Of a stretch of 64,000 nt of DNA, positions 1 through 37,167 are shown in pieces. Origin of the DNA: Microgenomates group bacterium (GTDB lineage Bacteria > Patescibacteriota > Microgenomatia > PFEM01 > JBNASD01). Location of the stretch: the NCBI GenBank assembly GCA_049720225.1, contig JBNASD010000003.1:143-64142 (forward strand). The letters are read 5' to 3'. The notes beneath the pieces were generated by a model. That model ran no database searches. It was not told the DNA's origin and saw only the letters and a list, made by a program, of their open reading frames with translations. Position 1 is the stretch's first letter, and the number at the start of each line of letters is the position of its first letter. The position numbers and the translations under genes were made by a program.

Positions 1-93
1 TGTAACAATACCTCTTTATACAAAGTTAATCCCTTAGCTTCAGGCTGTGAAGAGACTCAATGTCCAGAGATTCCAATTCAAACTGTGCGCTAA
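1..93 (+). CDS. 3' end (partial) of secreted protein; carries the conserved Cys-containing FN3-like C-terminal module (CNNTSLYKVNPLA.GC.E.QC)
   Basis: In-frame translation CNNTSLYKVNPLASGCEETQCPEIPIQTVR*, near-identical to the C-termini of ORFs 2732..3358 and 3424..5778; stop TAA at 91-93. Confidence 0.6.
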   Translation, partial: CNNTSLYKVNPLASGCEETQCPEIPIQTVR

Positions 94-97
94 AACT

Positions 98-2647
98 TTA
101 AGGCGCCAATTCTTCCCATAAAGAAGCTCGCCTCCATAAAGAAGAATTAAGATTTAAAAAAAGCTTTGGTTGATAAACAAATTTCTCTGCTGGCGTAGTT
201 TTGTTTCTTTGGGTTCCTAAATCACGGGTTAAACGGAAGTATTTAGCGATTACTCCTCCGTTGACGATTAATTGTTGGGAGCTAGGTGTTCCTTCATTAA
301 AATCATTAGCGGAATACTCATTCTCTACTGAAGAATAAAATCCCTCGTTAGTAATAAAAAATCCTGATAAAGAGGAAATATCTTTTGAAATTCCTATTCC
401 TTCGGAGGCTACTATCACCAAACTTCCGCCATTATTGATATCAACAGTAATTGGTTGATTAATTAAAAGTTTCCCTTCAACAAGAATAACTATCTTTCGT
501 GTTCCAATATTCAAAGACTCTCCTAATTTTAAATTTCCCCTAAAACCAAAAATATCTTTATCGGAAGAAAGATTTTCTTGAAAAATTTCTTCTAGTTCTT
601 CAAAAGAAGAAACTTCGGTAATCTTTTTAAAATAATCAAAATCAAACCAATTAACAAAGGTAGTATTGGCTAACCAACCTAAAGAAGAAACACTTCCCAA
701 ACCAAAAATCACTTCTTCTCCTCCGTAAGAAACTATCCCCGGATAACCTCCCAACCCCTCTAAGGAAAAGAAGTTTCCTGAGGGCATAAAGGAAATAATT
801 TCATTTTGGGTATGAACTGCTCCTTCTTGGGTTTGAAACCAAGTTTTTTGACAGCTTGGATCTTCTACACATTGAGTATTAAAATCGCATTGACCCTGGG
901 TGGGATCGCCGTTATAGTAACAGTATTGAACTTGACAAATTTCGTTGGGGACACAATCGCAATCACCACAGGAAAGATTTTGCCAATTACCACAAACACA
1001 TGCAGGGGTAACACTTGGAGAAACAGAAGGAGGAGCTGGCACATTATTAATTTGATCACTACAATTTAGAGGATCACAACCTGCTTTTATTGGTCTTACT
1101 TCATAAATTACCTTACTTCCTGGCGGAAAGCCTTCGCCATTATTGTCAGCAGTATACGAAGTAACATTTCTTCCTACCGTAGCTAAATATCGGGGAAAAC
1201 ATTCACCAGAAGAATCTGTTTGACATAAATAAATTTCATATCTATCTTCATAATTAACGTCACTCCATCTAATTGCTTTATTGTAATTTCCGTCACGTCG
1301 GGGAACATCGTCATCGGTTACCAACGAAGGACACAAAGGACATATATCTTGTTTGCAAATATAAATTTTCCTTGTTTTATTAGTTTTATCTTTTAATAAA
1401 TCCCGCCAGTAAATCCAACCTCCTCCGGCTTTATTATCAACCTTACAGTATAATCGGTAAGAATTACCATCAATCACCGAAGGAAAAGAAGAAAAATAAA
1501 CAGTTAACCAATTTTGCCCTAAAGAAAATGGACCATCATTGGGTAAACTTTCTCCTAAATTTAATGTACCGGTTTGGTCGGTAATTTTACAGGTTAAAAC
1601 TTTATTTCCTTTAGCAACGTCTCGATCTAATTCTCCCAAAATTTCTACCCTGTCAATGTAACCAGTTTTATTGGCGATAAAATTTGCGTATTGATTTTCG
1701 TTATAAGAATCAATTAAGGCAGTACCGGTATTATGATCAAGTTGTTGCAAAGATAAAGGGCAAATATAGGCGGGAGTGGGAGTAGGAGTTGCTATCCCTC
1801 CACCGCCCTGTGATCCTCCACAAACGGTATCGGAAAATTTATAAAAAATTGTAAATCCACCGAATTCTACAGAAGTAATTACAAGACTAGATCCAATAGG
1901 CGGTGGTTTTTGAGAATTTATAGTTTTTAGTGCTCTAAAAGTACCGTTGGTTGTTGGATATAACGTAATAGGATTATAATAACATCTGCCTTCATTTAAA
2001 GAAAATGGAGCACAATAATTATTCAAACAAAAAAGATAATTATCGCAACTTCCTCCACCATTAATTATCCCTCTAATTTCTGGGCCGGAGGGATATTGAT
2101 AAAACCATCCATATCGAGCGTTTGTATAAACAAGATTACACCCCGAAGAGTTTAAGCATCCTGAGTTTAAATAGTTAGGGTAATCTTCGTCGCTTTTTTT
2201 GTATTCTGGTCTTTTTTCTTCACAATAATGAATTTTACCATCCCCTACATATCGATACATCACATTTGCCCAACACTCTCCACACCCAATAGGAGCAGTA
2301 AATTTAGCAAAAAAACGAATTCCTCCATTCCAAATTTCTCTCTTCGAAGAAGAAGCAGGAATCCAGCTTGAATTGCCTAATTTAAAAAGAGGTTGCTCCC
2401 GAAGGTATTCCTCTTTAATCCAAAATTCTATAGTAGTATCAGCTTTTTCAATTAAGAAATTAAAATGTTGCAAAACAGAACCACGTTCTCCCGAAATAGC
2501 ATAATATAAAGAACTATAAGTATGCATATTTCCTACTTTTACTCCATCAACATAACATTCTATATAAGCAAACGTTTTCGAAGGAAAAAAAAGAAGAACT
2601 AAAAATAAAAATAACAGAGAAAAAGAAAAGAAAATTAATTTCTTCAC
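98..2647 (-). CDS. large secreted Cys-rich protein with PT-rich linker and FN3-like domain; hypothetical surface protein
   Basis: N-terminal signal peptide MKKLIFFSFSLLFLFLVLLFFPSKTFA; many paired Cys; TPTPTP linker; FN3-like segment W..V...RYEIYL...SYT; 849 aa ORF. Confidence 0.6.
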   Translation of the reverse strand: MKKLIFFSFSLLFLFLVLLFFPSKTFAYIECYVDGVKVGNMHTYSSLYYAISGERGSVLQHFNFLIEKADTTIEFWIKEEYLREQPLFKLGNSSWIPASSSKREIWNGGIRFFAKFTAPIGCGECWANVMYRYVGDGKIHYCEEKRPEYKKSDEDYPNYLNSGCLNSSGCNLVYTNARYGWFYQYPSGPEIRGIINGGGSCDNYLFCLNNYCAPFSLNEGRCYYNPITLYPTTNGTFRALKTINSQKPPPIGSSLVITSVEFGGFTIFYKFSDTVCGGSQGGGGIATPTPTPAYICPLSLQQLDHNTGTALIDSYNENQYANFIANKTGYIDRVEILGELDRDVAKGNKVLTCKITDQTGTLNLGESLPNDGPFSLGQNWLTVYFSSFPSVIDGNSYRLYCKVDNKAGGGWIYWRDLLKDKTNKTRKIYICKQDICPLCPSLVTDDDVPRRDGNYNKAIRWSDVNYEDRYEIYLCQTDSSGECFPRYLATVGRNVTSYTADNNGEGFPPGSKVIYEVRPIKAGCDPLNCSDQINNVPAPPSVSPSVTPACVCGNWQNLSCGDCDCVPNEICQVQYCYYNGDPTQGQCDFNTQCVEDPSCQKTWFQTQEGAVHTQNEIISFMPSGNFFSLEGLGGYPGIVSYGGEEVIFGLGSVSSLGWLANTTFVNWFDFDYFKKITEVSSFEELEEIFQENLSSDKDIFGFRGNLKLGESLNIGTRKIVILVEGKLLINQPITVDINNGGSLVIVASEGIGISKDISSLSGFFITNEGFYSSVENEYSANDFNEGTPSSQQLIVNGGVIAKYFRLTRDLGTQRNKTTPAEKFVYQPKLFLNLNSSLWRRASLWEELAP

Positions 2648-2731
2648 TTTAACTTAAGATTAAATTAATTTAAGGGTATTGTCAAGAGAAAAAGTTGCAA
2701 GAATTTTTTTCTTTATGTTATTCTTAAAAAA

Positions 2732-3358
2732 ATGAAGAAAAAAATTTTTTTAATAATCTTGCCCCAACTATTCCTCTTAATTTTCTTTCCTTCTTTAATA
2801 TTTGCTGATGAATGTCCTTCGCGGTCAATAGGAGACATTAATTGTGATAGAGAAACAAATCAACAAGATTTGGAGTATCTTTTAAACCTCTGGAATTATT
2901 TAGGAGAAATCCCAGGAGTTTCTTTAGGAGATATTAATAATGATAATAAGGTAGAAGAAAAAGATCTCCATATTCTGCTTTTTAATTGGTTAAGAACTTT
3001 TGCGCCAACCTCTACCCCAACCCTTACTCCTACTCCATCAGCTTCTCCTACTCTTACCCCTCCTCCTACGACTAATTGTCCCTCTGTCTGCCCAGAAATT
3101 ATTTTCTATAGTTCAGGAATTGAAGGTGATCAACAAACCTGCTATGTAAAATTAGTTTGGAATCCCTCTCCTTCTGCCACCGTTTATCGAGTTTATCGAA
3201 ATGCGGTTTATAAAGAAACAACTAATAATCACTATACCTGGCACTTTGTTCCTTGTAACAATAATTCATTATATAAAGTCCAGCCCACTGCTCCTAATTG
3301 CCAAGAAATTTCCTGTTCGCCAGTAGCGGTAAGAACCCCTCCTCTTCCCAATCAATAA
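2732..3358 (+). CDS. secreted protein: dockerin-like Ca-binding repeat pair + Pro/Thr linker + conserved FN3-like Cys C-terminal module
   Basis: Signal peptide; two 12-residue loops DINCDRETNQQD and DINNDNKVEEKD, each followed by a hydrophobic helix, matching the D-x-N-x-D-x-x-x-N/E-x-x-D dockerin/EF-hand pattern; PTSTPTLTPTPSASPTLTPPPTT linker; C-terminus paralogous to 1..93 and 3424..5778. Confidence 0.6.
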   Translation: MKKKIFLIILPQLFLLIFFPSLIFADECPSRSIGDINCDRETNQQDLEYLLNLWNYLGEIPGVSLGDINNDNKVEEKDLHILLFNWLRTFAPTSTPTLTPTPSASPTLTPPPTTNCPSVCPEIIFYSSGIEGDQQTCYVKLVWNPSPSATVYRVYRNAVYKETTNNHYTWHFVPCNNNSLYKVQPTAPNCQEISCSPVAVRTPPLPNQ

Positions 3359-3423
3359 AATATCAGCATTTTTAAAGTAATTATTGACAGGGTTGGAAAT
3401 TTACCATTAAAATAGTTTATAAA

Positions 3424-5778
3424 ATGCTTAAAAGAAAAGATTTTTTTCTTTTTTTTCTTATTTCTTCTTTAGGATTAATTTTAATTATTTCCAATTTTTT
3501 TCTCCAAGAAAAACCATCATTTTTTTCCAAAGCTCAAGAATTTTCTTCGGCCACTATCACTTTTCAGCAAGGAGTCAATAATTATCAAGGAACAACCAGT
3601 AGTTATATTTTTTCTTGGTATCCTGATAAAAATTTCCAATCAGAAAATAAAAATTTAATCTACACTACCTCCGCTTTTACTTTAATAAGATTTGATCTCT
3701 CTTCTCTTCCTCAAAATGCTAAAATTGACAACGCTGCTTTAACTTTATGCGCCGTTAGTAAATATGGTTCCTCAACCTCCCCGTTAAGTATAAAAGTGTT
3801 CCCACTGATAAGATCTTGGAATCCTAAAACAGTTACTTGGTTTCAGGCAGACATTTACCAGGAATGGACAAAACCAGGGGCTCAAGATCCAATTCAAGAC
3901 CGAAAAAATAATTATGTTGCTAATTTGGGTATTAACAACGTAGGTTGCTATAACTTTCCTCTCACTTCTATAGTTCAAAGATGGGTCGCTTATCCTCAAA
4001 CTAATAAGGGGATTATTTTAGCCTCTTTAGAAGGGGCGGGAGTTGGTTATTTTTTTGCCGATGAAAGTTATCCTACTGTCTCCAGCCGACCAAAACTCAC
4101 TATTTCTTATACTCTTTCTCCAACCAATAATCTTCCTCCTTATGTCAGTTTTACTTCTCCTTCTTCTGAACAATTTATCACCGATCCTTTCGCTTTAGAG
4201 GTAATCACTCAAGACGACAAAGGAATTTCCCGAGTGGAATATTATTTAGATGGCAATAAAATTACTTCTTTAACTAATCCTCCTTATATTTTTTCTCTTG
4301 TTCCTGGACATTATTCTTTGGGGACTCATCTTCTTACGGCAAAAGTTTTTGATGATATTGGACAACAAGATGAGGATAATCGTTTAGTTAATTTTTATCA
4401 AAAAGATGATGGAGTAATTACCTTAGCCCAAATTTCTGATAACCATCTTGAAAGTAGTTCTTTATATCCTCAAAGATTAACTCAGGTTCTTCAAGAAATA
4501 AAAGACGTGATCAAACCAGCCTTAATTATTGATACCGGTGATTTAGTTACCACTCCCTCTACCGCTAATTATCAGCTTTATAGTAACATTATAAATAATT
4601 TAAATTTGAAAATCCCCCTCAAAATTATTCCCGGCAATCATGATCTTACTGACGGCGGAGCCAGTTTAAAAAATGCCCTTAGCGCCGCAAAAGAAAAATT
4701 CTTTTTAGACATCGAAAATTATCGTCTTTTAGGAATTGGCTGTTACAAAATTGCTCAATATCAAAATTGGGCGGAAAATCTTTTAAAAGAAAATAAAAAG
4801 GAAATAATTTTTTCTCATTATCCCGTCGTCCTTCCTCCTGATAAAGCTTCCAATTCTTTATATCAGATGTCTCCCTCAGAAAAAACCGCTTTAATTTATT
4901 TATTTAGAAATTTTTCTCCTCTTTTTTATTTCTCCGGTCATGTCCATGAAAGATTTCTTTTAGAAGAACCAGAAACTTTAGTTCCTAACTTAAGTGTGTT
5001 AGCCACTACTCAAAAATCTGGTTACGAAATTATTACTTTAGATAATGGCATAATTTCTAGTAATGTTACCTATATTAATGAAAGTCCCCGCTGGCCAGTA
5101 GTTGTTATTACCTCTCCTCAATCATTTTATGGGTTAAATAACCAAAAAATTATCTCGGGAATAGTGAAAATAAGAGCCAAAATATTTGATCCTAATCCCA
5201 TAAATACTGTTGAGTACAAAATAGATTCTGAAAATTGGATAAGAATGGAAAAGAAAGGATTTTCAGTTTACGAAAAAGAATGGGATACCGCTGGTTATCC
5301 AGGCGTTCATACTCTTTATGTCAAAGCTATTAATTCATTGGGAAACCAAAAAATAACTCAAATCAAGGTTAATGTTTCCTCCTCTGTTCCTTCACCTACA
5401 CCTCCTTCCCCTCTACCTACAGTTACCCCCTCACCTTCTTTACCTACCAATACCCCTACACTCCTTCCTACCAACACTCCTACTCCTACTCCCACACCTT
5501 CTTCTTCCTCTTGTCCTTCTTCTTGTCCCCAAATTACTTCTTATTCTTCAGGGAAAGAAACTGATGGTACTTGTTGGGTAGAGCTTTCTTGGAAACCTGT
5601 TCCTAATGCCACTTCCTACAAAATTGTTAGAAATAGTTCTACTTACAAAACTACCACCCAAACTACTTATCGTTGGCGTTGGTTACCTTGCAACAATACC
5701 TCTTTATACAAAGTTAATCCCTTAGCTTTAGGATGCCAAGAAATTCAATGTCAAGAAGTGGCGATTAAGACTCCATAA
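3424..5778 (+). CDS. secreted calcineurin-like metallophosphoesterase with Ig-like domains, PT linker and conserved FN3-like C-terminal module
   Basis: Signal/TM N-terminus; MPP motifs ISDNHLE (DxH), DTGDLV (GDxxD), IPGNHDL (GNHD/E), SGHVHER (GHxH); two bacterial Ig-like segments; PSPTPPSPLPTVTPSPSLPTNTPT linker; C-terminus ...CWVELSWKPVPNATSYKIVRN...LPCNNTSLYKVNPLALGCQEIQCQ. Confidence 0.65.
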   Translation: MLKRKDFFLFFLISSLGLILIISNFFLQEKPSFFSKAQEFSSATITFQQGVNNYQGTTSSYIFSWYPDKNFQSENKNLIYTTSAFTLIRFDLSSLPQNAKIDNAALTLCAVSKYGSSTSPLSIKVFPLIRSWNPKTVTWFQADIYQEWTKPGAQDPIQDRKNNYVANLGINNVGCYNFPLTSIVQRWVAYPQTNKGIILASLEGAGVGYFFADESYPTVSSRPKLTISYTLSPTNNLPPYVSFTSPSSEQFITDPFALEVITQDDKGISRVEYYLDGNKITSLTNPPYIFSLVPGHYSLGTHLLTAKVFDDIGQQDEDNRLVNFYQKDDGVITLAQISDNHLESSSLYPQRLTQVLQEIKDVIKPALIIDTGDLVTTPSTANYQLYSNIINNLNLKIPLKIIPGNHDLTDGGASLKNALSAAKEKFFLDIENYRLLGIGCYKIAQYQNWAENLLKENKKEIIFSHYPVVLPPDKASNSLYQMSPSEKTALIYLFRNFSPLFYFSGHVHERFLLEEPETLVPNLSVLATTQKSGYEIITLDNGIISSNVTYINESPRWPVVVITSPQSFYGLNNQKIISGIVKIRAKIFDPNPINTVEYKIDSENWIRMEKKGFSVYEKEWDTAGYPGVHTLYVKAINSLGNQKITQIKVNVSSSVPSPTPPSPLPTVTPSPSLPTNTPTLLPTNTPTPTPTPSSSSCPSSCPQITSYSSGKETDGTCWVELSWKPVPNATSYKIVRNSSTYKTTTQTTYRWRWLPCNNTSLYKVNPLALGCQEIQCQEVAIKTP

Positions 5779-5782
5779 AAAA

Positions 5783-6307
5783 ATGCAATTATTAAAAATT
5801 TTAATTTTTACTTTCTTGTTTTTTTTCCTATTTGAAAGAAAAGCATTATCAGTCAACATTAATATTGATCCAAAAATTATTAAAAATGAACATTTCCATC
5901 AACTTTTAGGAAATTATATCAATCTTACCACCGGAAGTTTTTTTCAAGATTTCAACAATCAGGAATTTATTAATAGTGCTAAACAAATTATTCCCCAAGC
6001 GGGTGAGCCTCCGGTAATGCGCCTTTATTGGGACCTTACTAATAGCCAAATAATCCAAATTATTAATTTTTGTAAAGAAGTAAATTGTGATCCTATGTTT
6101 GCTTTTTCCGATAATCTTAATCTTAATGACCCACAAATAAGAGAACAAATAAAAGTGAAAATAAGATTTATTAAAAATTCATGCGAAACAATTTTTGAAG
6201 ATAATAACCATTGTCTTCATTGGGATATAGGAAATGAACCTTCAAAAGAATGCTATAAAATCCAACAAGTAGCTTCTTTATTATCCAAAATTATTTCCTT
6301 TAATTAA
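5783..6307 (+). CDS. glycoside hydrolase family 5-like, N-terminal fragment (signal peptide + catalytic-acid region); appears frameshifted into the next ORF
   Basis: Signal peptide; HWDIGNEPS matches the GH5 signature around the catalytic Glu (I-G-N-E-P); frame ends at 6305-6307 while frame 0 is open from 6273 onward. Confidence 0.5.
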   Translation: MQLLKILIFTFLFFFLFERKALSVNINIDPKIIKNEHFHQLLGNYINLTTGSFFQDFNNQEFINSAKQIIPQAGEPPVMRLYWDLTNSQIIQIINFCKEVNCDPMFAFSDNLNLNDPQIREQIKVKIRFIKNSCETIFEDNNHCLHWDIGNEPSKECYKIQQVASLLSKIISFN

Positions 6308-7409
6308 AGAAGAAATTCCTAACGCTATTATTCATGCTTTAGAACTTTACCATTACCCTTTAACAGTTAATCAACAAACTTCTCCTTGTAAGGAGAAATG
6401 TCCTAATTATGATATCGGACAATGTATCATAAAACTCCTTAATGAAATTAATCCTAATGCAAAAATTGATGTAGTGGCTACTCATTGGTATCCTTACATT
6501 TCTTCTCAAATAAGTTCAATTACAGGAACAAGTATTCTTACTTGGGAAGGGATTGATCCCTCTAATAAAAGACAGAAAATGCTTTATCCCTATGAACTAA
6601 CTAACTCCAGTACTGGCATTGTAAGTTATACTAAAAACTATTCTAACACCGAAAATGCGGTAGTAGGAATCGGTGAATTTAGTACCGTTGGTTTAACAAA
6701 CAATATTCCTTCGCTTCAGAAAAATAATGTCACATGGGGAGCAGCTTTTTGGACAATGGATGTAATAGGAATTATGGCCGAGGCGGGAATCAAATATGCT
6801 CAGAAACATATCTTAAATGGCAAAATAATCCCCGGTGTTCTTTCTACTTATACTTTTCCTACAATTGGCTTCCAAGGAGAAAGATTACCTCTCTCTTACG
6901 CTTATGAACTTTACGCTAAATATTTTGGTAATAAAATAGTTCACTCTTATTCAGATCAACCACAATTATTAAATGTTCACGCTTCCCTGGATGATTGGAA
7001 AAGATTAAAAGTCCTCCTTATTAATAAAACAGGAAACAATCAAAATGTAATTTTAAACATAAACAATTTTCTTCATAAAAATTTAGTCATTTTTCATTCC
7101 TTAACTATTCCCAATAGAGATAATTTTGAAAGGCTCTCTTTAGATGAAAGAGGAATAGCAAAAATCACCACTTATGATAGAACTATCGAAAGAAATCTTA
7201 GTTTTTCTATAACTCCTTTCACCGCCACTATAATTACCTTTTTCCCGGATTGTGCAGATTATAATAAAGGTAATCTTAATTGCGATGAAAAAATAGACTC
7301 AATCGATATTAATATCGCAATTAATTCATGGCTAGAAAAGTTTTATAACTTAAATCAGGATTCAATCAATGATGAAGAAGATTTAACTATTATTCTCAAA
7401 AATTTTTGA
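6273..7409 (+). CDS. GH5-like hydrolase C-terminal portion with C-terminal dockerin-like repeat pair (continuation of 5783..6307 after a frameshift)
   Basis: Frame-0 ORF open from 6273 (after TAG 6270-6272); track ORF starts at GTG 6474; C-terminal NLNCDEKIDSID...INSW and NLNQDSINDEED...LKNF dockerin-like loops. Confidence 0.5.
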   Translation, partial: LLYYPKLFPLIKEEIPNAIIHALELYHYPLTVNQQTSPCKEKCPNYDIGQCIIKLLNEINPNAKIDVVATHWYPYISSQISSITGTSILTWEGIDPSNKRQKMLYPYELTNSSTGIVSYTKNYSNTENAVVGIGEFSTVGLTNNIPSLQKNNVTWGAAFWTMDVIGIMAEAGIKYAQKHILNGKIIPGVLSTYTFPTIGFQGERLPLSYAYELYAKYFGNKIVHSYSDQPQLLNVHASLDDWKRLKVLLINKTGNNQNVILNINNFLHKNLVIFHSLTIPNRDNFERLSLDERGIAKITTYDRTIERNLSFSITPFTATIITFFPDCADYNKGNLNCDEKIDSIDINIAINSWLEKFYNLNQDSINDEEDLTIILKNF

Positions 7410-7424
7410 TAAAAAAAATAAAAA

Positions 7425-8159
7425 TCAACGGTCTAAAAAAACTAACCAAACAAACTTTAATAAATTTATTTGCCTTCTCCACCTCCACGGCTGTATCAAA
7501 AGCCTAAATAACCACTCAAACCCTATCTTTCTAATAAAAAGTGGTGCACGAGGAACAAAACCAGTTAAAAAGTCTAATGCCCCCCCTACCCCCATTGCCA
7601 ACAAAATGTCGTTTTTTGGCAAATTTTTCTTAATCCACTCCTCTTGTTTTCCCATTCCTTGACAGGCAAAAACAATATCCCATTTTTGTTTTTGCCAATT
7701 GGGAGTTTCCTCTAAAGAAAAAATTTTTGCTCCTTTAAATTTTTCCTGCAAAATTTTAATCTGTCGCCTTCTTTCCTCTCCTGAATCATCATGATTTCTT
7801 GCTCCCACCACTCCTATTTGCCATCGATAAGTTTGCCCTAACCTTAATAAATCTTCCACCAAATCCGCACCGGCTATCCGCTCCGGTAATGAATAAGAAG
7901 TTTTTCCTCGCCATTTTAAATACCGAGAAGCCCAAACCAAGCCTATTCCATCCGCCACCGCCATATCCGCTAAGTTAAGAATTTCTTTAAATCTTTTATT
8001 TTCTTGGGCATAAACCACAAACTCGGGATTAACGGTTACTAAAAAAGTTTTTTTCCCTCTTTTAATTCCTTCTTCAAGGTAATTTAGCACTTCATTATAT
8101 CGATTGCTATTTAAATTAATTCCTAAGATTTTTACTATTTTTCTATCCTTTTTATTCAT
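7425..8159 (-). CDS. WecB/TagA/CpsF-family glycosyltransferase (GT26; N-acetylmannosaminyl-transferase-like)
   Basis: Family-typical sequence KILGINLNSNRYNEVLNYLEEGIKRGKKTFLVTVNPEFVVYA...ADGIGLVWASRYL and ~244 aa length. Confidence 0.75.
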   Translation of the reverse strand: MNKKDRKIVKILGINLNSNRYNEVLNYLEEGIKRGKKTFLVTVNPEFVVYAQENKRFKEILNLADMAVADGIGLVWASRYLKWRGKTSYSLPERIAGADLVEDLLRLGQTYRWQIGVVGARNHDDSGEERRRQIKILQEKFKGAKIFSLEETPNWQKQKWDIVFACQGMGKQEEWIKKNLPKNDILLAMGVGGALDFLTGFVPRAPLFIRKIGFEWLFRLLIQPWRWRRQINLLKFVWLVFLDR

Positions 8160-8550
8160 ATTTTTTTGAAAAATTTTAATATTTTAAACAGTTTAAACTC
8201 GAAAAAATTGACTTAAAAACGATTTACGCTCAAAAAGTTGGTCTTTTTTTTCTATTTTTTAATCTTATAATATTTTATTATAGGTTTTAATTTTGTAAAA
8301 GTTTTAAATTAAAAACGGTCTAAAAAGGGCTTTAAAATATAGGGTTTATTTTCAATACCCATGTTTTTCAAATTTAAAATATTTTGAGTAAAAAAAATAA
8401 TCAAAAAAAGGCCCTTTAAGTATTAAAAAAATTATTAAAGAACAAAAAATTTAATTTAAATTTTTTTATAAAAATATAGGATTAAAAATTTTCTAATTTT
8501 CTTTTTAATTTTTTATTTTTTAACTTAATTTTTTTAAAAAAATATAGGAT

Positions 8551-9600
8551 TTATTTATTTTTAATCACCTGACGATAAAAATCCAAATTTTCTAAAATAA
8601 TACCAATCCCTTTAATGACACAATAAAGTGGTTCTTCGGCAACATGAACGGGTACGCCAATTTCTTCGGTAATCAACTTATCAAACCCTCGAAGCAAACT
8701 TGTTCCTCCAGCAAAAAAAATTCCTTTATCAATAATATCGGCTGATAACTCGGGAGGGGTTTCTTCTAAAACATCTTTAATTACCCCAATAATTTGGTTT
8801 AAGACTGGCCGAATTGCTTCGGTAATTTCAGTCGAAGTAATTTCAATCAACTTAGGCAAACCACTAATTGAATCTCTTCCTTTAACCTCCATTACCTCTT
8901 CCTTTACTACCGGTAAGGCGGAACCAATTTTTAACTTGATTTCCTCCGCGGTTTGCTCGCCAATAATTAAAGAATGTTTTTTTCTTAACCAGCTGGCAAT
9001 TGCCTCATCAATTCGGTTGCCGGCAATTCGTACCGAACGACTGACAACCACTCCTCCTAAAGAAATTACCGCTGCCTCTGTTGCTCCCCCACCGCTATCA
9101 ACAATCATACTTCCTGAGGGAACATCAATAGTAATTCCTGCTCCCAATGCCGCCGCCAAGGGTTCGTCTACTAGCCACGCGGTCCGTGCTCCTGCCGATA
9201 AGGTGGCATCTAAAACTGCTCTTCTTTCAACCTGTGTACTTCCTGCCGGGGCACAAATCATCACCTCAGGACGTAAAAAAAAGCTTTTCCCAATCGCTTT
9301 TTCCAAAAAATAGCTCAAAATTGCCTCCGTAATTTTATAATCAGCAATCACCCCATCGCGCATTGGTCGCGAAGCGATAATTGTTTCTGGTGTTCGGCCA
9401 ATCATCTGTTTTGCTTCCTCTCCCACTGCCAATACCTCTCCTGTTTCTGTGGAGACCGCTACCACTGTTGGCTCGTTTAAAACTATTCCTTTTCCCTCTA
9501 CCCAAACTAACGAGTTAGCGGTCCCTAAATCAATGCCAATTTTTGGTCCCAATGAAGAAAAAAATTGCTTAAAATTTTTGAGGTTGATATTTTTTAACAT
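8551..9600 (-). CDS. mreB: rod-shape determining actin-like protein MreB
   Basis: IGIDLGTANSLVWVEGKGIVLNEPTVVAV, DSGGGATEAAVISLGGVV, FAGGTSLLRGFDKLITEE: actin/MreB ATPase motifs over full length. Confidence 0.9.
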   Translation of the reverse strand: MLKNINLKNFKQFFSSLGPKIGIDLGTANSLVWVEGKGIVLNEPTVVAVSTETGEVLAVGEEAKQMIGRTPETIIASRPMRDGVIADYKITEAILSYFLEKAIGKSFFLRPEVMICAPAGSTQVERRAVLDATLSAGARTAWLVDEPLAAALGAGITIDVPSGSMIVDSGGGATEAAVISLGGVVVSRSVRIAGNRIDEAIASWLRKKHSLIIGEQTAEEIKLKIGSALPVVKEEVMEVKGRDSISGLPKLIEITSTEITEAIRPVLNQIIGVIKDVLEETPPELSADIIDKGIFFAGGTSLLRGFDKLITEEIGVPVHVAEEPLYCVIKGIGIILENLDFYRQVIKNK

Positions 9601-9709
9601 ATTTTGATCGATTTATTTTAAACTTCTTTTCTTCTTTGATAATAACACTTTTTAGAAAATACAATCAACCGTTGCTCAATAAGTATTATTATGATATGAT
9701 AATCTTAAA

Positions 9710-10927
9710 ATGAAAGAAAAAAAGTTTCGCCTTTTTTTATTTTTGATCGCTTTTATTTTTATTATTAGTGGCGCTTTTTTGGCAAGTTTAATTGCCCGTG
9801 GATACCGCCCTGATTTTTCTAAAGGAGGAATTTTACCAACCGGGATTTTGGTGACTACTTCTACTCCCGATGGCGCTCAAGTTTATATTGACGGAAAATT
9901 AAAAACCGCCACCAATAATACGATTAATCTTTCTCCTGGAAAATACGAAGTAGAAATTCGCAAAGACGGTTTTTATCCTTGGAAAAAGACTTTAGAAATT
10001 AGAAAAGAGTTGGTCACTAAAACTGATGCCCTTCTTTTCCCTACTTTTCCTGATTTAAAAGCCTTGACCTTTACCGGCGCCCAAAATCCGCTTTTATCTC
10101 CTGATGGCACTAAAGTAGTTTATAGTGTCAGTACTTCCTCCGCTGTTCTTAGCAAGCAAGGACTTTGGGTGCTAGATTTAATCGACCGTCCTTTAGGTTT
10201 AAATCGAGAACCAAGACAAATTGCTGTTAGCAGTGGAAAATATGACTTTGCTAAATCACAATATCGCTGGTCTCCTGATTCAAAACAAATCTTGGTTAGT
10301 TTTGAATTTCCTCAAGGAAAAAAACTTCCTCCTAAAAAAGAAAACTTTCTTTTAGATTCGGAAAGATTAACTCCCCCTTCAGAGCTTCAAGATATTACCC
10401 CTACTTTAAATCTTCTTCTTGCCAGCTGGCAAATTGAGGAAAAAACAAAAAAGGACTCTCAATTAGCCAAATTACCACCAAAACTTAAAGAAATTATTAC
10501 CGATAAAACCAAAGAGATTATTTTTTCTCCTGATGAAAAAAAGATTTTGTATACCGCCACCGCTTCTGCTTCTTTACCTGAGGGAATTATCCCTCCTCCG
10601 CCAGCTCCCAGTACCCAAAAGGAGGAAAGAGAAATTAAGCCCGGAAGAATTTATGTTTATGATTTAAAAGAAGATAAAAATTTCTTTATTACCGAAGAAA
10701 CCTCACAAAAAACAGTTTCTTGGTTTCCCACATCAAAACATATCTTTATAGTTCAAAATGATAAAATAATAGTCAAGGAGTATGATGGAACTAACGAGAC
10801 GGTAATTTATAGTGGCTATTTTATTGATAGCTTTGCTTTTCCTTTTCCCTCAGGAAATAAAATTCTTCTTCTTACCAACATCAGTAAAGATACCCCTCCT
10901 AATCTTTATGCTTTAATTTTAAGATAA
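9710..10927 (+). CDS. membrane-anchored PEGA-domain protein with beta-propeller-like C-terminal region
   Basis: N-terminal TM; PEGA consensus TSTPDGAQVYIDGKLKTATNNTINLSPGKYEVEIRKDGFYPW. Confidence 0.55.
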   Translation: MKEKKFRLFLFLIAFIFIISGAFLASLIARGYRPDFSKGGILPTGILVTTSTPDGAQVYIDGKLKTATNNTINLSPGKYEVEIRKDGFYPWKKTLEIRKELVTKTDALLFPTFPDLKALTFTGAQNPLLSPDGTKVVYSVSTSSAVLSKQGLWVLDLIDRPLGLNREPRQIAVSSGKYDFAKSQYRWSPDSKQILVSFEFPQGKKLPPKKENFLLDSERLTPPSELQDITPTLNLLLASWQIEEKTKKDSQLAKLPPKLKEIITDKTKEIIFSPDEKKILYTATASASLPEGIIPPPPAPSTQKEEREIKPGRIYVYDLKEDKNFFITEETSQKTVSWFPTSKHIFIVQNDKIIVKEYDGTNETVIYSGYFIDSFAFPFPSGNKILLLTNISKDTPPNLYALILR

Positions 10928-24028: not shown

Positions 24029-25303
24029 ATGAAAAAACTCTTTTTGCTTTTGGTAATAATTCTTGGCTCGGCTATTGCTTTTTCTGCCGGTTGGTTTAGT
24101 CGTGGGTTAATAATTAAAAGAAATCCTTCTCCTTCTAATCCCCATTTAGCCTTTTTGGAAGAAGTTAAGGAAACTATTAAACAAAACTACTGGGAAAGAA
24201 TTCCCGAGGAACAATTAGGGGAACTTTTTTTATCCGCTGGAGAAAAAGTCAGTGGCCAACCCCAATTAAGAAAAAAAACTGACCCCCAAACTCTCTGGCA
24301 AAGCCTTGAAAAAATTTTGGAAAAAATTCCGGAAGAAAAAAAGATTGATTTTGTTACTCAAGTCGCAGACTTAGTTTTAACCAATCTCCAACCTGTTGAT
24401 CGTTCTCGCCTTTACACCCAAAAAGAAGAAAAATCATTAGCAGAAGCAGTTTACAATGTCACTAATGAAGATTTTTATCAAACTTTAGAAGTACCCAAAC
24501 AAGCTAATGAAGAAGAAATTACCAAAGCTTACCAAGAAAAAAAGACTCAACTAGAAAAAGAAGCTTCTTTTTCTCCTACCGCTTCCGCTCAGTTAAAAAA
24601 ACTTCAAAAGGCTTACCAAACTTTAAGTGAAAAAGAAAACCGTCAATTTTATGACCAAGCAGGAATTGAACCAACAATTGAATACGCTTTATTACATCCT
24701 GATGTTTTACACTTACATTTAAAAAAGATCTCCCCTACTTCTCTGGAGGAACTCCAACGAGTTACCCAAAAATTTGATAAAGACGGTGGGCCAACAAGTT
24801 TAATTTTGGATTTACGTGATAATGTGGGCGGATCGCTGGATATTTTACCTTATTTACTTGGTCCTTTTATTGGCCCGGATAGCGAAGCTTTTCGTCTTTA
24901 TCAGCAAGGAGAAAAACACCCTTTTCGCACCCAAACTGGTTGGTTACCTTCTTTGGTTCGTTATAAAAAGGTAGTCATTTTAATCAATCAAAATACTCAA
25001 TCCTCAGCGGAAGCAATGGCGGGAGCGTTAAAAAAATATAATGTCGGTGTTTTGGTAGGAACACCAACTAAGGGCTGGGGTACGATAGAAAGAGTCTTTC
25101 CTCTTACCAACCAAATCTCTCAAAATATAAAATACTCTATCTTTTTAGTACACAGCCTTGTTTTAGCGGATGATGGTCAACCCATTGAAGGGAGAGGAAT
25201 TCAACCTACGATTGATATTAACAATCCCAACTGGAAAAAAGAATTAGAAAATTACTTTAATTATCCTTCTTTAATTGAAGCGGTTTCTCAATTAGTAAAA
25301 TAA
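24029..25303 (+). CDS. membrane-anchored S41-family (C-terminal processing/tail-specific) peptidase
   Basis: N-terminal TM; LILDLRDNVGGSLD and VVILINQNTQSSAEAMAGALKKYNVGVLVGTPTKGWGT match S41 catalytic-region consensus. Confidence 0.7.
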   Translation: MKKLFLLLVIILGSAIAFSAGWFSRGLIIKRNPSPSNPHLAFLEEVKETIKQNYWERIPEEQLGELFLSAGEKVSGQPQLRKKTDPQTLWQSLEKILEKIPEEKKIDFVTQVADLVLTNLQPVDRSRLYTQKEEKSLAEAVYNVTNEDFYQTLEVPKQANEEEITKAYQEKKTQLEKEASFSPTASAQLKKLQKAYQTLSEKENRQFYDQAGIEPTIEYALLHPDVLHLHLKKISPTSLEELQRVTQKFDKDGGPTSLILDLRDNVGGSLDILPYLLGPFIGPDSEAFRLYQQGEKHPFRTQTGWLPSLVRYKKVVILINQNTQSSAEAMAGALKKYNVGVLVGTPTKGWGTIERVFPLTNQISQNIKYSIFLVHSLVLADDGQPIEGRGIQPTIDINNPNWKKELENYFNYPSLIEAVSQLVK

Positions 25304-25307: not shown

Positions 25308-26243
25308 TTAATTAACCAGATACCATTTTTTTCCATCACTTACTATCTCAATTTCTCCCTCTAAATCAGTGCGGTAAACTTCTATTCCTAATGATTTTAA
25401 TCTTTCTAAAACTTCAGCAGTGGGATGTCCCCACCGATTATTGGCTCCCACGGAAATTATTGCTATTTTAGGATTGATGGTTTTTAAAAACTCTTCAGAA
25501 CTGGAATATTTGCTTCCGTGATGAGGTATTTTTAAAACTTCAATTTCCCTAGGATTAAATTGATAGAAAGAAATAATTTTCTTCTCCTCTTTTATTCCAA
25601 TATCACCAGTTAATAAAGCTTGAAAATCACCAAACTCTAAAAGACTAACAATGGAAGTTTCGTTGAGATTACCTTTAAATGAAACAAAGGTAGTTCCCAA
25701 CACCGAAGAATTCGAAACCAAATTTTCCTTAGCAGACCAATCTTTAGTTTGCCAAATAATTTCTTCTCCTAATCTCTCTTCGGGAAATAAAATTTCTAAA
25801 TTAATTTCGCCAATTTTTATTCTTTCTCCTTGATGGGGGCTATAAACGGGAATTGCCCTTTTGACTACTTCTTCCCGAAATTTTTGAAAAACTCCACTTT
25901 CTGCTATTAAAGAATTACTAATAATCTGTAATATTTTATATCTTTCTATAACAGAAACTAAACCGGTTAGATGATCAAATTCCGGATGAGTTAAAATCAC
26001 TAACTCAATTTGGCGATCCCAAAAGGGCAAATGTTTGCTTAAGCAGATTAAAACTTTTTCGTTAGGTCCACCGTCTACTAAAATTTGGTTTTTCCCTTTG
26101 GTAATTAAAATTGCGTCTCCCTGTCCTACATCGCAAAAAACTAAATGAAGTTTATTATCGGGAAATTGAAAAACCGCTCCCCAAATTAAACCTGTTAATA
26201 AAAATAGAAAAATGAAAATAATCCTAAAAAAATTACGACTCAT
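25308..26243 (-). CDS. comEC: ComEC/Rec2-type metallo-beta-lactamase domain protein (C-terminal ComEC module encoded as a separate gene)
   Basis: LHLVFCDVGQGDAILITKG...LVDGGP and HPEFDHLTG MBL motifs; likely ATG start at 26243 (MSRNFFRIIFIFLFLL, own TM/signal); track start at 26282 is a TTG. Confidence 0.7.
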   Translation of the reverse strand: MSRNFFRIIFIFLFLLTGLIWGAVFQFPDNKLHLVFCDVGQGDAILITKGKNQILVDGGPNEKVLICLSKHLPFWDRQIELVILTHPEFDHLTGLVSVIERYKILQIISNSLIAESGVFQKFREEVVKRAIPVYSPHQGERIKIGEINLEILFPEERLGEEIIWQTKDWSAKENLVSNSSVLGTTFVSFKGNLNETSIVSLLEFGDFQALLTGDIGIKEEKKIISFYQFNPREIEVLKIPHHGSKYSSSEEFLKTINPKIAIISVGANNRWGHPTAEVLERLKSLGIEVYRTDLEGEIEIVSDGKKWYLVN

Positions 26244-26305
26244 ATTAATTGACAATTTTGGACAGGTGTCTGAAAATGTCAAAAATTTAAATTTAAATTT
26301 TAACT

Positions 26306-27550
26306 TTATTTTTTTCTTTTTTTAGAAAAATACCAAAAAATTCCCAAAATCAAATAATACCCTATCTCTAACCACAAAGGAAAATTTTCTGTTTTAATTA
26401 CTCCCCATGGAATTCTGGCAAAAAAATCAATAATTTTAATCATTAAAGTCAACGGTACCCAAGCAAACCAACTAGCAATTTGGGCAAAAGAGTGACAAAA
26501 TAAACCAAAAAATAAGATAATAAGACCTAAAATCATTAATAAGGGGATAAAGGGTAACACCAAAAGATTAACTAACGGGGAAAACAAACTAATTTGACCA
26601 AAATTGGCCAACAAAACCGGTAATACTCCCATTTGAGCCCCTAACGTTGTTTTTAAATTTTCCCCTGCCGCTGGTATATTAAAAATTTTTCCTTTTAAAC
26701 AAGGACCAATCAATAAAATTCCCCCCGTCGCTAAAAAAGATAATTGAAATCCCCTATCAAAATATATCAAAGGATTAATTAGTAGCATAACTCCCGCTGA
26801 AAAAATCAATGCCCTTAAAGCGTCTTTTTCTCTTCCTAAAAATTGTGCCAAATAAGTTAAGCTTCCCATAATAGCCGCCCGTACAATTGGTGGCTCTCCA
26901 CCCGCCATTAAGGTATAAATCAATATTCCTAAAAAAGAAATCACTAATGCATATTGCCGACGGATAAATTTAGTTAAAAAAACAATTAAGAGCCCAGCAA
27001 TCACGGTGATATTATATCCCGAGGCAACCACGAGATGAATCGTACCTGTTTTCCGCAAATTTTGCGTAAATTTTGCCGGCATTTGTTTTTTGGCTCCTAA
27101 AACAATGCCGGAAATTAAGCTTGCTTGAGGCTCAGGTAACACGGAAGAAAAAGTCTTTTCTAATCGCTGGCGAAAAAATAAAATTCCCTTAACTAATTTT
27201 CTTTGATTAATTAAACTCTCCTCTTCAGAAACAACATGGATGGTTGGATAATTAAATACAAACGACTTTTGAAATTTATTTATCAGCATTACGGTTGGTT
27301 TGCCAATAATTTCTAATTTTTGACCATAAAAATACTCAGGAAAAGGCTCGGTAACCACCAAAAATTGACCTAACCTAATGATCTGTTTTGATGCACTAAG
27401 ATAAGGTTGTTGGGAAACACGGGCGGTAACTTTTAAAGAAACACCTGGAGGAAGATTTTTAATTAAAGATAAAGAGGTTTGCCATAAACGAAAAAGGTAA
27501 AAAGAAAGAAAAACAATTAAAAAAACAAACCATCGCATATAATAAACCAA
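26306..27550 (-). CDS. comEC: ComEC/Rec2 competence channel, N-terminal membrane (DUF4131 + competence) part
   Basis: Polytopic; TGTIHLVVASGYNITVIAGLLIVFL matches the ComEC 'competence domain' core. Confidence 0.75.
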   Translation of the reverse strand: MVYYMRWFVFLIVFLSFYLFRLWQTSLSLIKNLPPGVSLKVTARVSQQPYLSASKQIIRLGQFLVVTEPFPEYFYGQKLEIIGKPTVMLINKFQKSFVFNYPTIHVVSEEESLINQRKLVKGILFFRQRLEKTFSSVLPEPQASLISGIVLGAKKQMPAKFTQNLRKTGTIHLVVASGYNITVIAGLLIVFLTKFIRRQYALVISFLGILIYTLMAGGEPPIVRAAIMGSLTYLAQFLGREKDALRALIFSAGVMLLINPLIYFDRGFQLSFLATGGILLIGPCLKGKIFNIPAAGENLKTTLGAQMGVLPVLLANFGQISLFSPLVNLLVLPFIPLLMILGLIILFFGLFCHSFAQIASWFAWVPLTLMIKIIDFFARIPWGVIKTENFPLWLEIGYYLILGIFWYFSKKRKK

Positions 27551-27575
27551 AATTTAAAAGAAATTAATTAAAGTT

Positions 27576-27640
27576 TTGAATTTTGGTCATTTGAATTTTG
27601 AAATTGTTTAGGATTTAGAATTTTGAATTTAGAATTTTTT
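27576..27640. repeat. solo remnant of the four-helix-bundle cassette (24-nt identity to 17477-17500 plus GGATTTAGAATTTTGAATTTAGAATTTTTT arm)
   Basis: TTTGAATTTTGGTCATTTGAATTT identical to the start-codon region of the 17153..17492 gene (minus strand encodes MTKIQ then stops); AT-repeat arm resembles the cassette inverted repeat. Confidence 0.5.
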
Positions 27641-28265
27641 AATATGTTGTAATTTGGTCTTTAATTTTTTCAAAGACACTTTGAGGAATTTTTGCTTTCG
27701 TTACTAACTCTTCAATATTCTGATAAGGACGATTAGCAATAATTGCCTTTGCCCGCGAAGGTCCTATTCCCCATAAAGACTCAAGTTGGAACTGAGAGGC
27801 GGTATTGATATTAATCTTTCCGCTAACTTGGGAAGAAACTCCTGCTACTCCCCCACTTTCCTGACTAATACTTATTCCCGGCCCACCAAATTTTCTCACT
27901 TCATCCTGGGTTGGAATATATATTTTTATACCATCTGTTAGTTTTTGTGCTAAATTGATATTTTTACTTACCCAATCGCGGTCGGCCGAGGCGGATAACC
28001 CACCTGCGCGAATAAGCAAATCATTAATTCGTGAATTTGTTGGCAATTCATAAACCCCTGGCTTCTCAACTGCTCCTTGTAAATCAACAAAAATAGTATT
28101 TTTAGATGAATTTTCTTCAGAAGAAATAATTTCTATCTTTGGTGTTTCTTGAGTTTGGATTTTTAAAAAAAGAAAACCTAAACCTAAAAAAATTACTCCC
28201 CAAAAAAGAATTATTAAAGGAATCTTAAACTTTATCAACTTCTCTTCCTCAATTTCCCAATTCAT
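27639..28265 (-). CDS. comEA: competence protein ComEA (SLBB + tandem helix-hairpin-helix DNA-binding domain)
   Basis: N-terminal TM; SLBB-like VDLQGAVEKPGVYELPTNSRINDLLIRAGG; HhH INTASQFQLESLWGIGPSRAKAIIANRP. Confidence 0.85.
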   Translation of the reverse strand: MNWEIEEEKLIKFKIPLIILFWGVIFLGLGFLFLKIQTQETPKIEIISSEENSSKNTIFVDLQGAVEKPGVYELPTNSRINDLLIRAGGLSASADRDWVSKNINLAQKLTDGIKIYIPTQDEVRKFGGPGISISQESGGVAGVSSQVSGKININTASQFQLESLWGIGPSRAKAIIANRPYQNIEELVTKAKIPQSVFEKIKDQITTY

Positions 28266-32024: not shown

Positions 32025-32771
32025 ATGGGAAAGTTTCTTCTCCACTCTCTTTTTTTATTCGTGGCGGTGTTTTTAGCTTTCTTTTGGACTAGCTCTCCTA
32101 CTTTATCTTTATACACTCTTCAACTTATTGGTCTTTTTGTTTTTCTTTTTTTTCTTAATCAATTTCTTCGTCGACAACCAAAAACCAAAACCAAAATTAA
32201 CCAACGAGCCTTATTAGCAGTAGACGGAATAATCCTTACCTTAGTAATAATGCTTTTGGTCTATTCTACCGGTGGTTTAACTTCTCCCCTGTTTTTTTTA
32301 GTTTATTTTTTAATGTTTGGCTTAGCCTTGCTTTTTGAACCATTAATTACTCTTTCTTTGGCGGGAGTAATGGTTTTGCTTTTTTTACTCACCCCCACCA
32401 AACAAGAACCCCTAAACGAATTTCTTCAACTTTTTTCTCTCCTTTTAATTACTCCATTGGCTTTATTTTTTGGCAATCAATATCTCAAACTTTTAGAAAG
32501 TGAGGAAAAAATAAAAATTTTAAAAGAAGAAAATCAAATTACCGAGGAGCAAATCGCCAAAACCGAAACCAATACTCTTTTGTGGACCACTTTGAATTTC
32601 AAAGAAGCCCTTACAGTAATTTTAGATGAGATAAGCAATTTGTTAGCGGATGTAAGTCATCTTACTGTTCGCCAAAAAGAATCGTTAGAAAAAATCCGCC
32701 GAAAGGCATTAGAACTTTTAAAAAGCGGAGAAAAGCTTAAAGAAGAGGTCGACAAAACTACCGACGAATGA
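32025..32771 (+). CDS. polytopic membrane protein with C-terminal coiled-coil; hypothetical
   Basis: About 6 hydrophobic helices then charged heptad-like tail. Confidence 0.45.
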   Translation: MGKFLLHSLFLFVAVFLAFFWTSSPTLSLYTLQLIGLFVFLFFLNQFLRRQPKTKTKINQRALLAVDGIILTLVIMLLVYSTGGLTSPLFFLVYFLMFGLALLFEPLITLSLAGVMVLLFLLTPTKQEPLNEFLQLFSLLLITPLALFFGNQYLKLLESEEKIKILKEENQITEEQIAKTETNTLLWTTLNFKEALTVILDEISNLLADVSHLTVRQKESLEKIRRKALELLKSGEKLKEEVDKTTDE

Positions 32772-34570: not shown

Positions 34571-34576
34571 GTGGGA
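34539..34576. repeat. palindromic repeat element, full copy 3 (variant core TCCACTCCTTAGGTGGGA)
   Basis: Overlaps the stop codon of 33509..34570; repeat translated as FPRCQYKSTP*. Confidence 0.65.
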
Positions 34577-34651
34577 AAAATTACCATCTTGACAAATTAA
34601 AAAAAACGTTTCAAGATAATAAATTAAGAAAATGTCATTTTAAATTTAAGA

Positions 34652-37107: not shown

Positions 37108-37110
37108 TTC

Positions 37111-37151
37111 CTCAATTTTCAATTTTCAATTTACAATTTTTAATTTTCAAC
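37111..37151. repeat. heptanucleotide tandem repeat (CAATTTT-like x5) in intergenic leader
   Basis: CTCAATTTTCAATTTTCAATTTACAATTTTTAATTTTCAAC. Confidence 0.5.
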
Positions 37152-37167
37152 TTAAAATAAATTTATA

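Follow-up and report, generated by a model that had tools for sequence, protein, structure and literature searches.

What holds the secreted enzymes of a Microgenomates bacterium in place once they have left the cell? The prevailing view is that members of the Candidate Phyla Radiation (CPR)/Patescibacteria live fixed to other cells, and little is known of the molecules by which their extracellular enzymes and adhesins are retained. The question is raised by a metagenome-assembled contig (JBNASD010000003.1) of a Microgenomates group bacterium (CPR/Patescibacteria); the 64,000 nucleotides analysed here, which we call the window, are the start of that 80,320-bp contig. Its first 7.4 kb (region 1-7409; NCBI proteins MGB9911571-MGB9911576, locus tags ACPLKP_03165-03190) carry five genes, the one at 98-2647 on the minus strand and the others on the plus strand, and in them two portable attachment modules, a dockerin and a probably disulfide-rich FN3 tail, are reused on unrelated secreted proteins. 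Our best explanation is that these 7.4 kb are a secretome island, that is, a set of Sec-exported proteins assembled from interchangeable modules; for this explanation as a whole, docking by the dockerins and binding by the tails included, we put the probability at about 0.55. What supports it directly are the domain identities, the FN3 fold, the family distribution and the cohesin neighbours in relatives. The genes are as follows.

1-93, plus strand: 3' end of a gene truncated by the contig/window start (ACPLKP_03165, partial), encoding the last 30 residues of a six-Cys FN3 tail and the stop codon
98-2647, minus strand: 849-aa secreted Cys-rich multidomain protein with an internal Pro/Thr (PT) linker and no Pfam/NCBIfam match
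2732-3358, plus strand: 208-aa adaptor-like protein, MGB9911573.1, with signal peptide, dockerin, PT linker and FN3 tail
3424-5778, plus strand: 784-aa secreted metallophosphoesterase, MGB9911574.1, identified by Pfam, NCBIfam and motifs
5783-7409, plus strand: glycosidase-like gene, split into two frames, 5783-6307 and 6276-7409

Two of the five products contain dockerins, one on the frameshifted glycosidase-like gene and one on the non-enzymatic adaptor, and the latter protein is built of nothing else than a dockerin and a tail behind its signal peptide.

2732-2806, plus strand: signal peptide of the 208-aa protein
2807-3001, plus strand: dockerin of the 208-aa protein (loops 2834-2869 and 2930-2965)
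3002-3076, plus strand: PT linker of the 208-aa protein
3077-3340, plus strand: six-Cys FN3 tail of the 208-aa protein
7248-7406, plus strand: C-terminal dockerin of the glycosidase (loops 7272-7307 and 7347-7382)

The four Ca-binding loops, DINCDRETNQQD (2834-2869), DINNDNKVEEKD (2930-2965), NLNCDEKIDSID (7272-7307) and NLNQDSINDEED (7347-7382), are each 12 residues long with Asp or Asn at positions 1, 3, 5, 9 and 12, and each is followed by an amphipathic helix. There are thus two repeats of about 22 residues per protein, and those of the 208-aa protein are identical to each other at 10/22 positions. Such loop pairs are far beyond chance, because a loose regular expression for the loop, run over all six frames of the 64 kb, gave one other match only, and that out of frame. 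When the segment of the 208-aa protein is isolated it scores 24.6 bits (E=3e-5) against Dockerin_1 (PF00404), for which the gathering cutoff is 22.9, while the whole protein reaches 18.1 bits and so stays below it; a sequence search of the PDB with the same segment returned dockerins in 6/6 matches. We also made a lineage dockerin profile from both window segments, the orthologue of the 208-aa protein in a relative (P0055) and the closest glycosidase homologues. Of the 28 matches to this profile 26 are dockerins, including every match with E<0.5; the solved dockerins among them range from E=1.9e-7 to 1e-4, with 4fl4 (1.9e-7) first, 2y3n (2.6e-6) and CelD and CelS (about 5e-5). Within the glycosidase family, 6/19 members match Dockerin_1 at the aligned C-terminus (E<=0.01, best 4.7e-6). 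Judged by these Dockerin_1, PDB, lineage-profile and family matches, both window modules are genuine dockerins, as an earlier note on this DNA had proposed from the loops; it had called them type I, a class that is not decidable from sequence, the Pfam model named Dockerin_1 making no discrimination between dockerin types. The window dockerins and their closest homologues are peculiar in having a Cys-x9-Cys bracket, formed by a Cys in the lead-in and another at loop position 4 (2807-2845 and 7248-7283), which was not seen in the clostridial dockerins aligned to them and which may form an extra disulfide. A single-sequence AlphaFold model of the 208-aa protein was unusable (predicted local distance difference test, pLDDT, 51).

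The second module closes three genes (the partial one at 1-93, 2732-3358 and 3424-5778), in which a Pro/Thr/Ser linker leads into a C-terminal module of 88-92 aa; in the 208-aa protein linker and module together take up 3002-3340, in the 784-aa protein 5377-5775. All three tails that the earlier note had placed on adjacent genes are confirmed, whereas strict adjacency is not, the 849-aa minus-strand gene lying between the first two. The two complete modules (3077-3340 and 5512-5775) are 56% identical. The 30 residues of the partial copy (1-90) are 72% identical to the module of the 784-aa protein, and a 77-aa NCBI fragment of the same gene (P0029), in which the remainder of the module is found, shows about 82% identity to that copy. 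At the DNA level, positions 1-84 and 5689-5772 share 82% identity, with 97% over the first 33 nt, and therefore these copies are recent paralogues. Across the six-frame translation of the window, a profile of the module has three matches only (E=1e-42, 1e-41 and, for the partial copy, 2e-11). Its cysteine framework comprises the CPxxCP start, a Cys beginning strand B, the Cys of PC(N/D)N(T/N)SLY and two more in the last loop.

The suggestion that this tail is FN3-like and carries cysteines, for which structure prediction had been proposed as the check, was borne out. An AlphaFold2 model from a nine-sequence alignment has seven strands (pLDDT 94.7, predicted template modelling score 0.82), and in a Foldseek comparison with the PDB the top-50 matches are all FN3 domains or FN3-containing chains (probability 1.0, template modelling (TM) score up to 0.78), including those from bacterial chitinases and a cellulosomal xylanase. 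The Pfam fn3 model (PF00041) does not match the tail even at E<=10, and neither does any other Pfam or NCBIfam model; conversely, canonical FN3 repeats of giant proteins are picked up by the module profile. An exhaustive HMMER search with this profile, covering 1.84 billion representative proteins, gave 1,335 matches, most of them giant proteins with many ordinary FN3 repeats that reach at most 29 bits per domain and cover the profile core only, and eight cluster representatives that match end to end at 112-141 bits. The named sources of the family are all Patescibacteria or Microgenomates metagenome-assembled genomes (MAGs). Since the tail has an FN3 fold and is missed by all Pfam and NCBIfam models, we regard it as an unannotated, cysteine-stapled FN3 subfamily, narrow and apparently proper to Patescibacteria/Microgenomates. 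Further searches added little: a metagenome scan with the module gave one further locus, the species-genome contig collection (which does not include this genome) contained no match to the profile, and word-index homologue searches, whether made with the 208-aa protein or the module alignment, retrieved nothing but the window's own proteins.

In every family member the module stands at the extreme C-terminus, right behind a PT-rich linker, and the proteins stop 0-10 residues past the domain without a hydrophobic segment. We considered known sorting and anchoring domains (the C-terminal domain of type IX secretion, LPXTG, PEP-CTERM, SLH and the like) and rejected them, no NCBIfam or Pfam model of this kind matching the tail. 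With respect to the cysteines, Cys5 and Cys79 are both missing in two members, namely P0164 and the gene upstream of P0055 in locus L004. Their loss together points to a disulfide between Cys5 and Cys79, which would leave Cys9-Cys84 and Cys25-Cys64 as the other pairs, although the joint loss in the two members may go back to a single evolutionary event.

The passengers of the tail are diverse: phosphoesterase, CARDB, discoidin plus enzyme-like domain, dockerin and PilX-like pilin. Thus P0058 is an orthologue of the window metallophosphoesterase with its tail; P0052 has a CARDB adhesion-type domain; P0120 and an 807-aa protein of locus L005 have an enzyme-like domain, with or without a discoidin domain; and P0055 repeats the dockerin-linker-tail layout of the 208-aa protein. 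In P0120 the order is enzyme, dockerin, linker, tail. Finally, P0164 has the tail at the C-terminus and a weak PilX_N match at the N-terminus, and is named 'Tfp pilus assembly protein PilX' in IMG. Tail-bearing genes adjoin each other also in the relatives L004 and L005. We also considered, and rejected, that the genes of the dockerin protein, the phosphoesterase and the glycosidase form a conserved operon of three, the neighbours being different in relatives.

Could the loops be generic EF-hand-like Ca sites, or a product of chance, and the tail a low-complexity stretch or an ordinary FN3 spacer? Such a view might draw on the sub-cutoff Dockerin_1 score of the whole 208-aa protein and on the failure of the Pfam fn3 model to match the tail. 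It has to contend with a lineage profile that matches hardly anything except dockerins, with a 22-residue repeat that is internally duplicated, and with a tail family that is sharply separated in score and has six conserved Cys and a fixed terminal position. The dockerin scores, the PDB matches and the separation of the tail family effectively refute it, and we leave it next to no chance.

If the first 7.4 kb are indeed a secretome island, signal peptides would export the modular proteins via Sec, and the dockerins would plug them, in a Ca-dependent manner, onto cell-surface proteins that bear cohesins and whose genes lie in another part of the genome. Docking to cohesins is proposed because this arrangement is seen in two related Microgenomates loci, L003 and L006. 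The FN3 tail would be a second, disulfide-stabilised binding module on a flexible PT tether, and would hold its passenger to a surface or polymer, be it a glycan of the host's or the cell's own envelope or a partner protein. The 208-aa protein would be an adaptor that joins the two attachment systems, a role we propose because it consists of dockerin and tail only and because the same make-up has been kept in the relative that encodes P0055. What we infer in this scheme are the binding functions, every one of them, the cohesin partner in this genome and the disulfide pattern.

The relatives make the cohesin part of the scheme concrete. In L003 (Microgenomates MAG JARYMT010000002.1) and in L006 an orthologous glycosidase-dockerin gene is flanked by cohesin genes, and the conserved set consists of a membrane-anchored cohesin-X-dockerin protein (391 and 381 aa, respectively), a protein with signal peptide and cohesin (229 and 217 aa) that ends in LPRSG or LPESG and a hydrophobic tail, i.e. 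a sortase-type anchor, and further cohesin or dockerin proteins. These relatives thus carry single-cohesin proteins, which lie at the following positions.

L003 13550-14239: single-cohesin sortase-type protein
L006 3840-4493: single-cohesin sortase-type protein

Re-scored with Pfam, the relatives' cohesins reach 41, 33.6 and 33.2 bits (cutoff 24.1) and a dockerin 42.8 bits with Dockerin_1; the set amounts to a minimal conserved cohesin-dockerin cluster. The literature agrees with this picture: expressed cohesin and dockerin genes have been found in Candidatus Shapirobacterales and 'cellulosomes' have been reported in Candidatus Roizmanbacterium, both Microgenomates (PMC9123182). The earlier opinion that such a docking system would be unusual in an organism with a reduced genome is therefore outdated, the more so as a dockerin protein is essential in a cultivated Saccharibacterium, where targeting of host glycans has been speculated (PMC10633639). 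As for the cohesin scaffold that had been expected elsewhere in the genome, the lineage supports a cohesin partner, by the cohesins beside the orthologues in L003 and L006, and the window does not, no cohesin being detected in its 64 kb. A cohesin partner seems reasonable for the lineage and is unproven for this genome.

Several observations weigh against our explanation. A Pfam search of 46 open reading frames of the 64-kb window (42 other large ones and four region products) found no cohesin; likewise, none was found in it by phmmer with five Microgenomates cohesin proteins or by a lineage-specific cohesin hidden Markov model (HMM) run on all six frames, and the window yielded no scaffoldin, no sortase-type cohesin anchor and no cohesin-X-dockerin adaptor. 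The dockerin of the glycosidase, when its C-terminus is searched alone, scores just 14.1 bits with Dockerin_1 (E=0.057), under the cutoff, and the gene that carries it is frameshifted and maybe dead. Gene order near the orthologues is not conserved, save for the block from the glycosidase to MreB and PEGA described below. Lastly, among the loci that we fetched those with tails lack cohesins and those with cohesins lack tails; the sample is tiny, the contigs are short, and this small pattern of exclusivity is possibly accidental.

The missing cohesin invites a different account of the dockerins, namely that they are non-cellulosomal, have no cohesin partner here and serve as Ca-stabilised adhesion or structural modules that bind, for example, glycans of a host surface. 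Besides the absence of cohesins within 64 kb, the unusual Cys-x9-Cys bracket of the window dockerins would fit such a role, and so would two precedents: non-cellulosomal dockerins have been proposed as adhesins in Omnitrophota (PMC10066038), and the essential Saccharibacteria dockerin is the one for which host glycans were speculated (PMC10633639). Yet in two relatives the dockerin of the very same glycosidase family adjoins bona fide cohesin genes, and 64 kb are merely a fraction of the genome, so that we consider this account unlikely.

The tail admits rivals of its own. It could be an envelope retention module that holds its passengers to the producer's own wall or S-layer, much as SLH domains or cell-wall-binding repeats do, instead of targeting them to a substrate or host, with the 208-aa protein displaying its dockerin as an inverted anchor. 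This would suit a domain that is always at the extreme C-terminus, on a long PT tether, behind many unrelated passengers, and it would suit a window that has tails and no sortase-type cohesin anchor. On the other hand, the tail has no match among known models of anchoring or sorting domains and, because the PilX-like pilin is already anchored by its N-terminus, the tail of this member would face outward. The pilin thus argues for a tail that is exposed on the outside for binding and does not solely serve retention by the producer. Retention in the envelope is possible, though we rather doubt it.

A bolder proposal would make the tail a new attachment module, specific to the CPR lineage, by which enzymes, adhesins and a pilin are all directed to one common target. 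In its strongest form the tail would be the dockerin receptor that replaces cohesin, and the dockerin-linker-tail protein would cross-link a self-assembling complex; we think this proposal quite improbable. The receptor role may also be put by itself: the FN3 tail would be the docking partner, a cohesin substitute, so that tail and dockerin proteins assemble and the dockerin-tail protein chains them. The separate occurrence of tails and cohesins in the fetched loci would then make sense, as would a window with two dockerins, three tails and no cohesin and the dockerin-tail fusions in the 208-aa protein, P0055 and P0120. Nevertheless, the pattern comes from the same tiny sample of short contigs, direct evidence is lacking, the dockerin of P0120 resembles the dockerins of cohesin-linked relatives, and we know of no FN3 domain that acts as a dockerin receptor. 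We give this last version very little credit. If the strongest form were true, the locus would encode a self-assembling extracellular complex in a minimal-genome organism.

The glycosidase-like gene of the window had been taken for a single gene with one open reading frame, a reading that fails because of an additional T at about 6294-6296.

5783-6307, plus strand: 5' part of the glycosidase-like gene, 174 aa, with signal peptide and first barrel half including the NEP motif
6230-6241, plus strand: NEP motif, E152, invariant
6294-6296, plus strand: frameshift site, a TTT run with one T too many in comparison with full-length homologues
6276-7409, plus strand: 3' part of the glycosidase-like gene, with GIGE motif, beta-sandwich domain and C-terminal dockerin
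6666-6680, plus strand: GIGE motif, putative nucleophile E300, invariant

A premature stop ends the first part. Deletion of one T converts ...SKIISFN-stop into ...SKII-PLIKEEIPNAIIHALELY (SKII joined to PLIKEE), and the repaired junction PLIKEEIPNAIIHALELY matches ...KRII-PLIRQYQPNAVIHALELY of the closest homologue. Full-length homologues (544-756 aa) align across the break, and the repaired window protein has 543 aa; NCBI calls the 3' part separately, as a 311-aa protein (MGB9911576.1, 6474-7409) with a GTG start at 6474. Either the gene is a pseudogene or the assembly is in error.

The two putative catalytic glutamates, E152 (NEP) and E300 (GIGE), are invariant in 19 homologues. The 'GH5-like' label of the earlier note had to be dropped, and GH5 was rejected, as PF00150 matches neither the fragments nor the repaired 543-aa sequence nor any of the 19 homologues; indeed, no family member, the window protein included, has a catalytic-domain Pfam match. 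A family profile finds GH44 best (E=1.2e-7), followed by GH51, GH79 and GH30, mainly over the barrel end and the beta-sandwich, and the Alpha-L-AF_C sandwich model is matched by 8/19 members. The glycosidase probably belongs to an unclassified family of clan GH-A type, to which GH44/GH51/GH79 come nearest. In 185,579 species genomes it occurs in two only, Candidatus Shapirobacteria UBA1435 and MAG A05DMB-I-39 (both Microgenomates), and overall it was found on Microgenomates-type contigs only. The block at 5783-10927 of the window (glycosidase - WecG/TagA glycosyltransferase - MreB - PEGA protein) is found again in a relative (L007/L008), there with the glycosidase inverted, and other homologues adjoin class A penicillin-binding proteins (L001, L002). 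In view of these WecG-MreB-PEGA and penicillin-binding-protein neighbours, a role on the cell's own envelope glycans would be as plausible as degradation of plant polymers.

The product of the gene at 3424-5778 was correctly recognised at the outset as a metallophosphoesterase: the calcineurin-like phosphoesterase model (PF00149) matches at 46.4 bits against a cutoff of 21.5, and all five metal-binding motifs (DxH, GD, GNHD, H and GHxH) are intact. Its parts are these.

Start of 3424-5778, plus strand: N-terminal hydrophobic signal
About 3601-4104, plus strand: DNRLRE/Disaggr_repeat-like domain
About 4138-4341, plus strand: Big_7 Ig domain
About 4420-4950, plus strand: calcineurin-like phosphoesterase domain
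Between the phosphoesterase domain and the linker, plus strand: second Ig-like domain (second Big_7 stretch)
5377-5511, plus strand: PT linker
5512-5775, plus strand: FN3 tail

The 849-aa protein on the minus strand contains an FN3-like stretch framed by CPxCP...GC....C (1052-1342), which we tried as a true tail-family member and rejected (module HMM E=0.18). It was also tried as a hidden cohesin scaffold and rejected, a profile-profile comparison with cohesin showing no similarity (hhalign probability 0.1%). Its C-terminal 250 aa (101-853) are homologous to the C-terminal domain of a 670-aa protein of the relative L012 (BLASTP E=3e-9). In that locus (L012 312-4241) a tail-bearing CARDB protein lies between a PilX-like pilin gene and the gene of the 670-aa protein, an arrangement that connects the family of the tail with genes like those of type IV pili.

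The remainder of the window holds other features. At 32768-38040 there are five consecutive secreted or C-terminally membrane-anchored proteins, essentially without Pfam matches; one has a sub-threshold match to a GBS104-like tip-pilin Ig domain and two end in similar ...Y.N...(F/Y).A.P.(Y/F) motifs, and the group may be a surface-fibre or pilus-like gene cluster. It is followed by a large envelope-glycosylation island (38550-60223) with GT2 glycosyltransferases, methyltransferases, three radical-SAM proteins (two B12-binding, one SPASM), a run of polytopic membrane proteins of about 500-590 aa without Pfam match, an NPCBM-domain protein and a YfhO-like protein; GC content goes down to 0.29-0.30 at 48-54 kb. 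The gene at 24029-25303 encodes an N-terminal signal or anchor and, in an unusual combination, a DnaJ J-domain (aa 148-209) joined to an S41 (tail-specific) peptidase domain. Directly beyond it are DNA-uptake genes (25308-28265), in which ComEC is divided between a Competence-domain protein and a second protein with the metallo-beta-lactamase domain, and ComEA (SLBB + HHH_3) is also present. Near the end, at 60903-64000, a 159-aa protein made of two integrase SAM-like N-terminal domains only precedes an NYN-domain protein, and GC rises to 0.42 at 62-64 kb; this may be either a boundary or what is left of a mobile element. Over 1-60000 the GC skew (2-kb bins) is negative in all bins except 34-36 kb (+0.01), typically -0.1 to -0.25, and the plus strand is consistently C-rich independent of gene strand.

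What is new in this locus, we think, is the Cys-stapled terminal FN3 tail and the dockerin-tail adaptor; FN3 domains as such are commonplace on secreted enzymes. Because it is made of the two modules only, the 208-aa protein offers a handle for studying how the surface of such cells is organised. In other respects the value of the finding is incremental, since dockerin-cohesin systems are already known in Microgenomates and the idea has been published (PMC9123182).

How does the locus compare with better known systems? Closest are the Microgenomates cohesin-dockerin sets (PMC9123182; L003, L006), which share with the window the lineage, the dockerin-ended glycosidase-like family and small secreted modular proteins with PT linkers. 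They differ in that L003 and L006 have no six-Cys FN3 tail, and the window dockerins belong to a Cys-x9-Cys subtype. With the clostridial type I dockerins (CelS/Cel48S, 2mte; CelD, 1clc; GH9, 4fl4) the window dockerins have in common two tandem loop-helix segments of about 22 residues and similarity at the profile level; in contrast, their loop position 6 is not Gly and they possess an extra conserved Cys pair, in the lead-in and at loop position 4. Moreover, the dockerin of the 208-aa protein is N-terminal and sits on no enzyme, and this organism has no known multi-cohesin scaffoldin. The glycosidase resembles the clan GH-A families with a C-terminal beta-sandwich (GH44, GH51, GH79, GH30), to whose NEP acid/base and GxGE nucleophile motifs its own invariant motifs would correspond, but its family has no catalytic-domain Pfam match and is limited to Microgenomates-type contigs, and the window copy is frameshifted.

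The nearest structural counterparts of the tail are the FN3 domains of chitinase A1 of Bacillus circulans (1k85) and of CtXyl5A (5g56), with the same seven-stranded sandwich (TM 0.64-0.65). Like the FN3 domains of bacterial glycoside hydrolases, the tail has conserved aromatic residues (Trp in strand B, Tyr in strands C and F) and is found on secreted modular enzymes; unlike them, it is always the last domain and not an internal spacer, is not recognised by Pfam fn3, and has six conserved Cys, including those of the CPxxCP N-terminal extension and two in the long F-G loop. In its architecture it recalls the cellulases of actinobacteria, in which a catalytic head is joined by a Pro/Thr tether to a terminal CBM2 beta-sandwich of about 100 aa with its ends tied by cysteines. 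The tail is an FN3 domain and CBM2 is of a different fold family, so that the likeness is one of layout; by analogy with the PT-linker + CBM2 layout, it suggests a targeting role for the tail.

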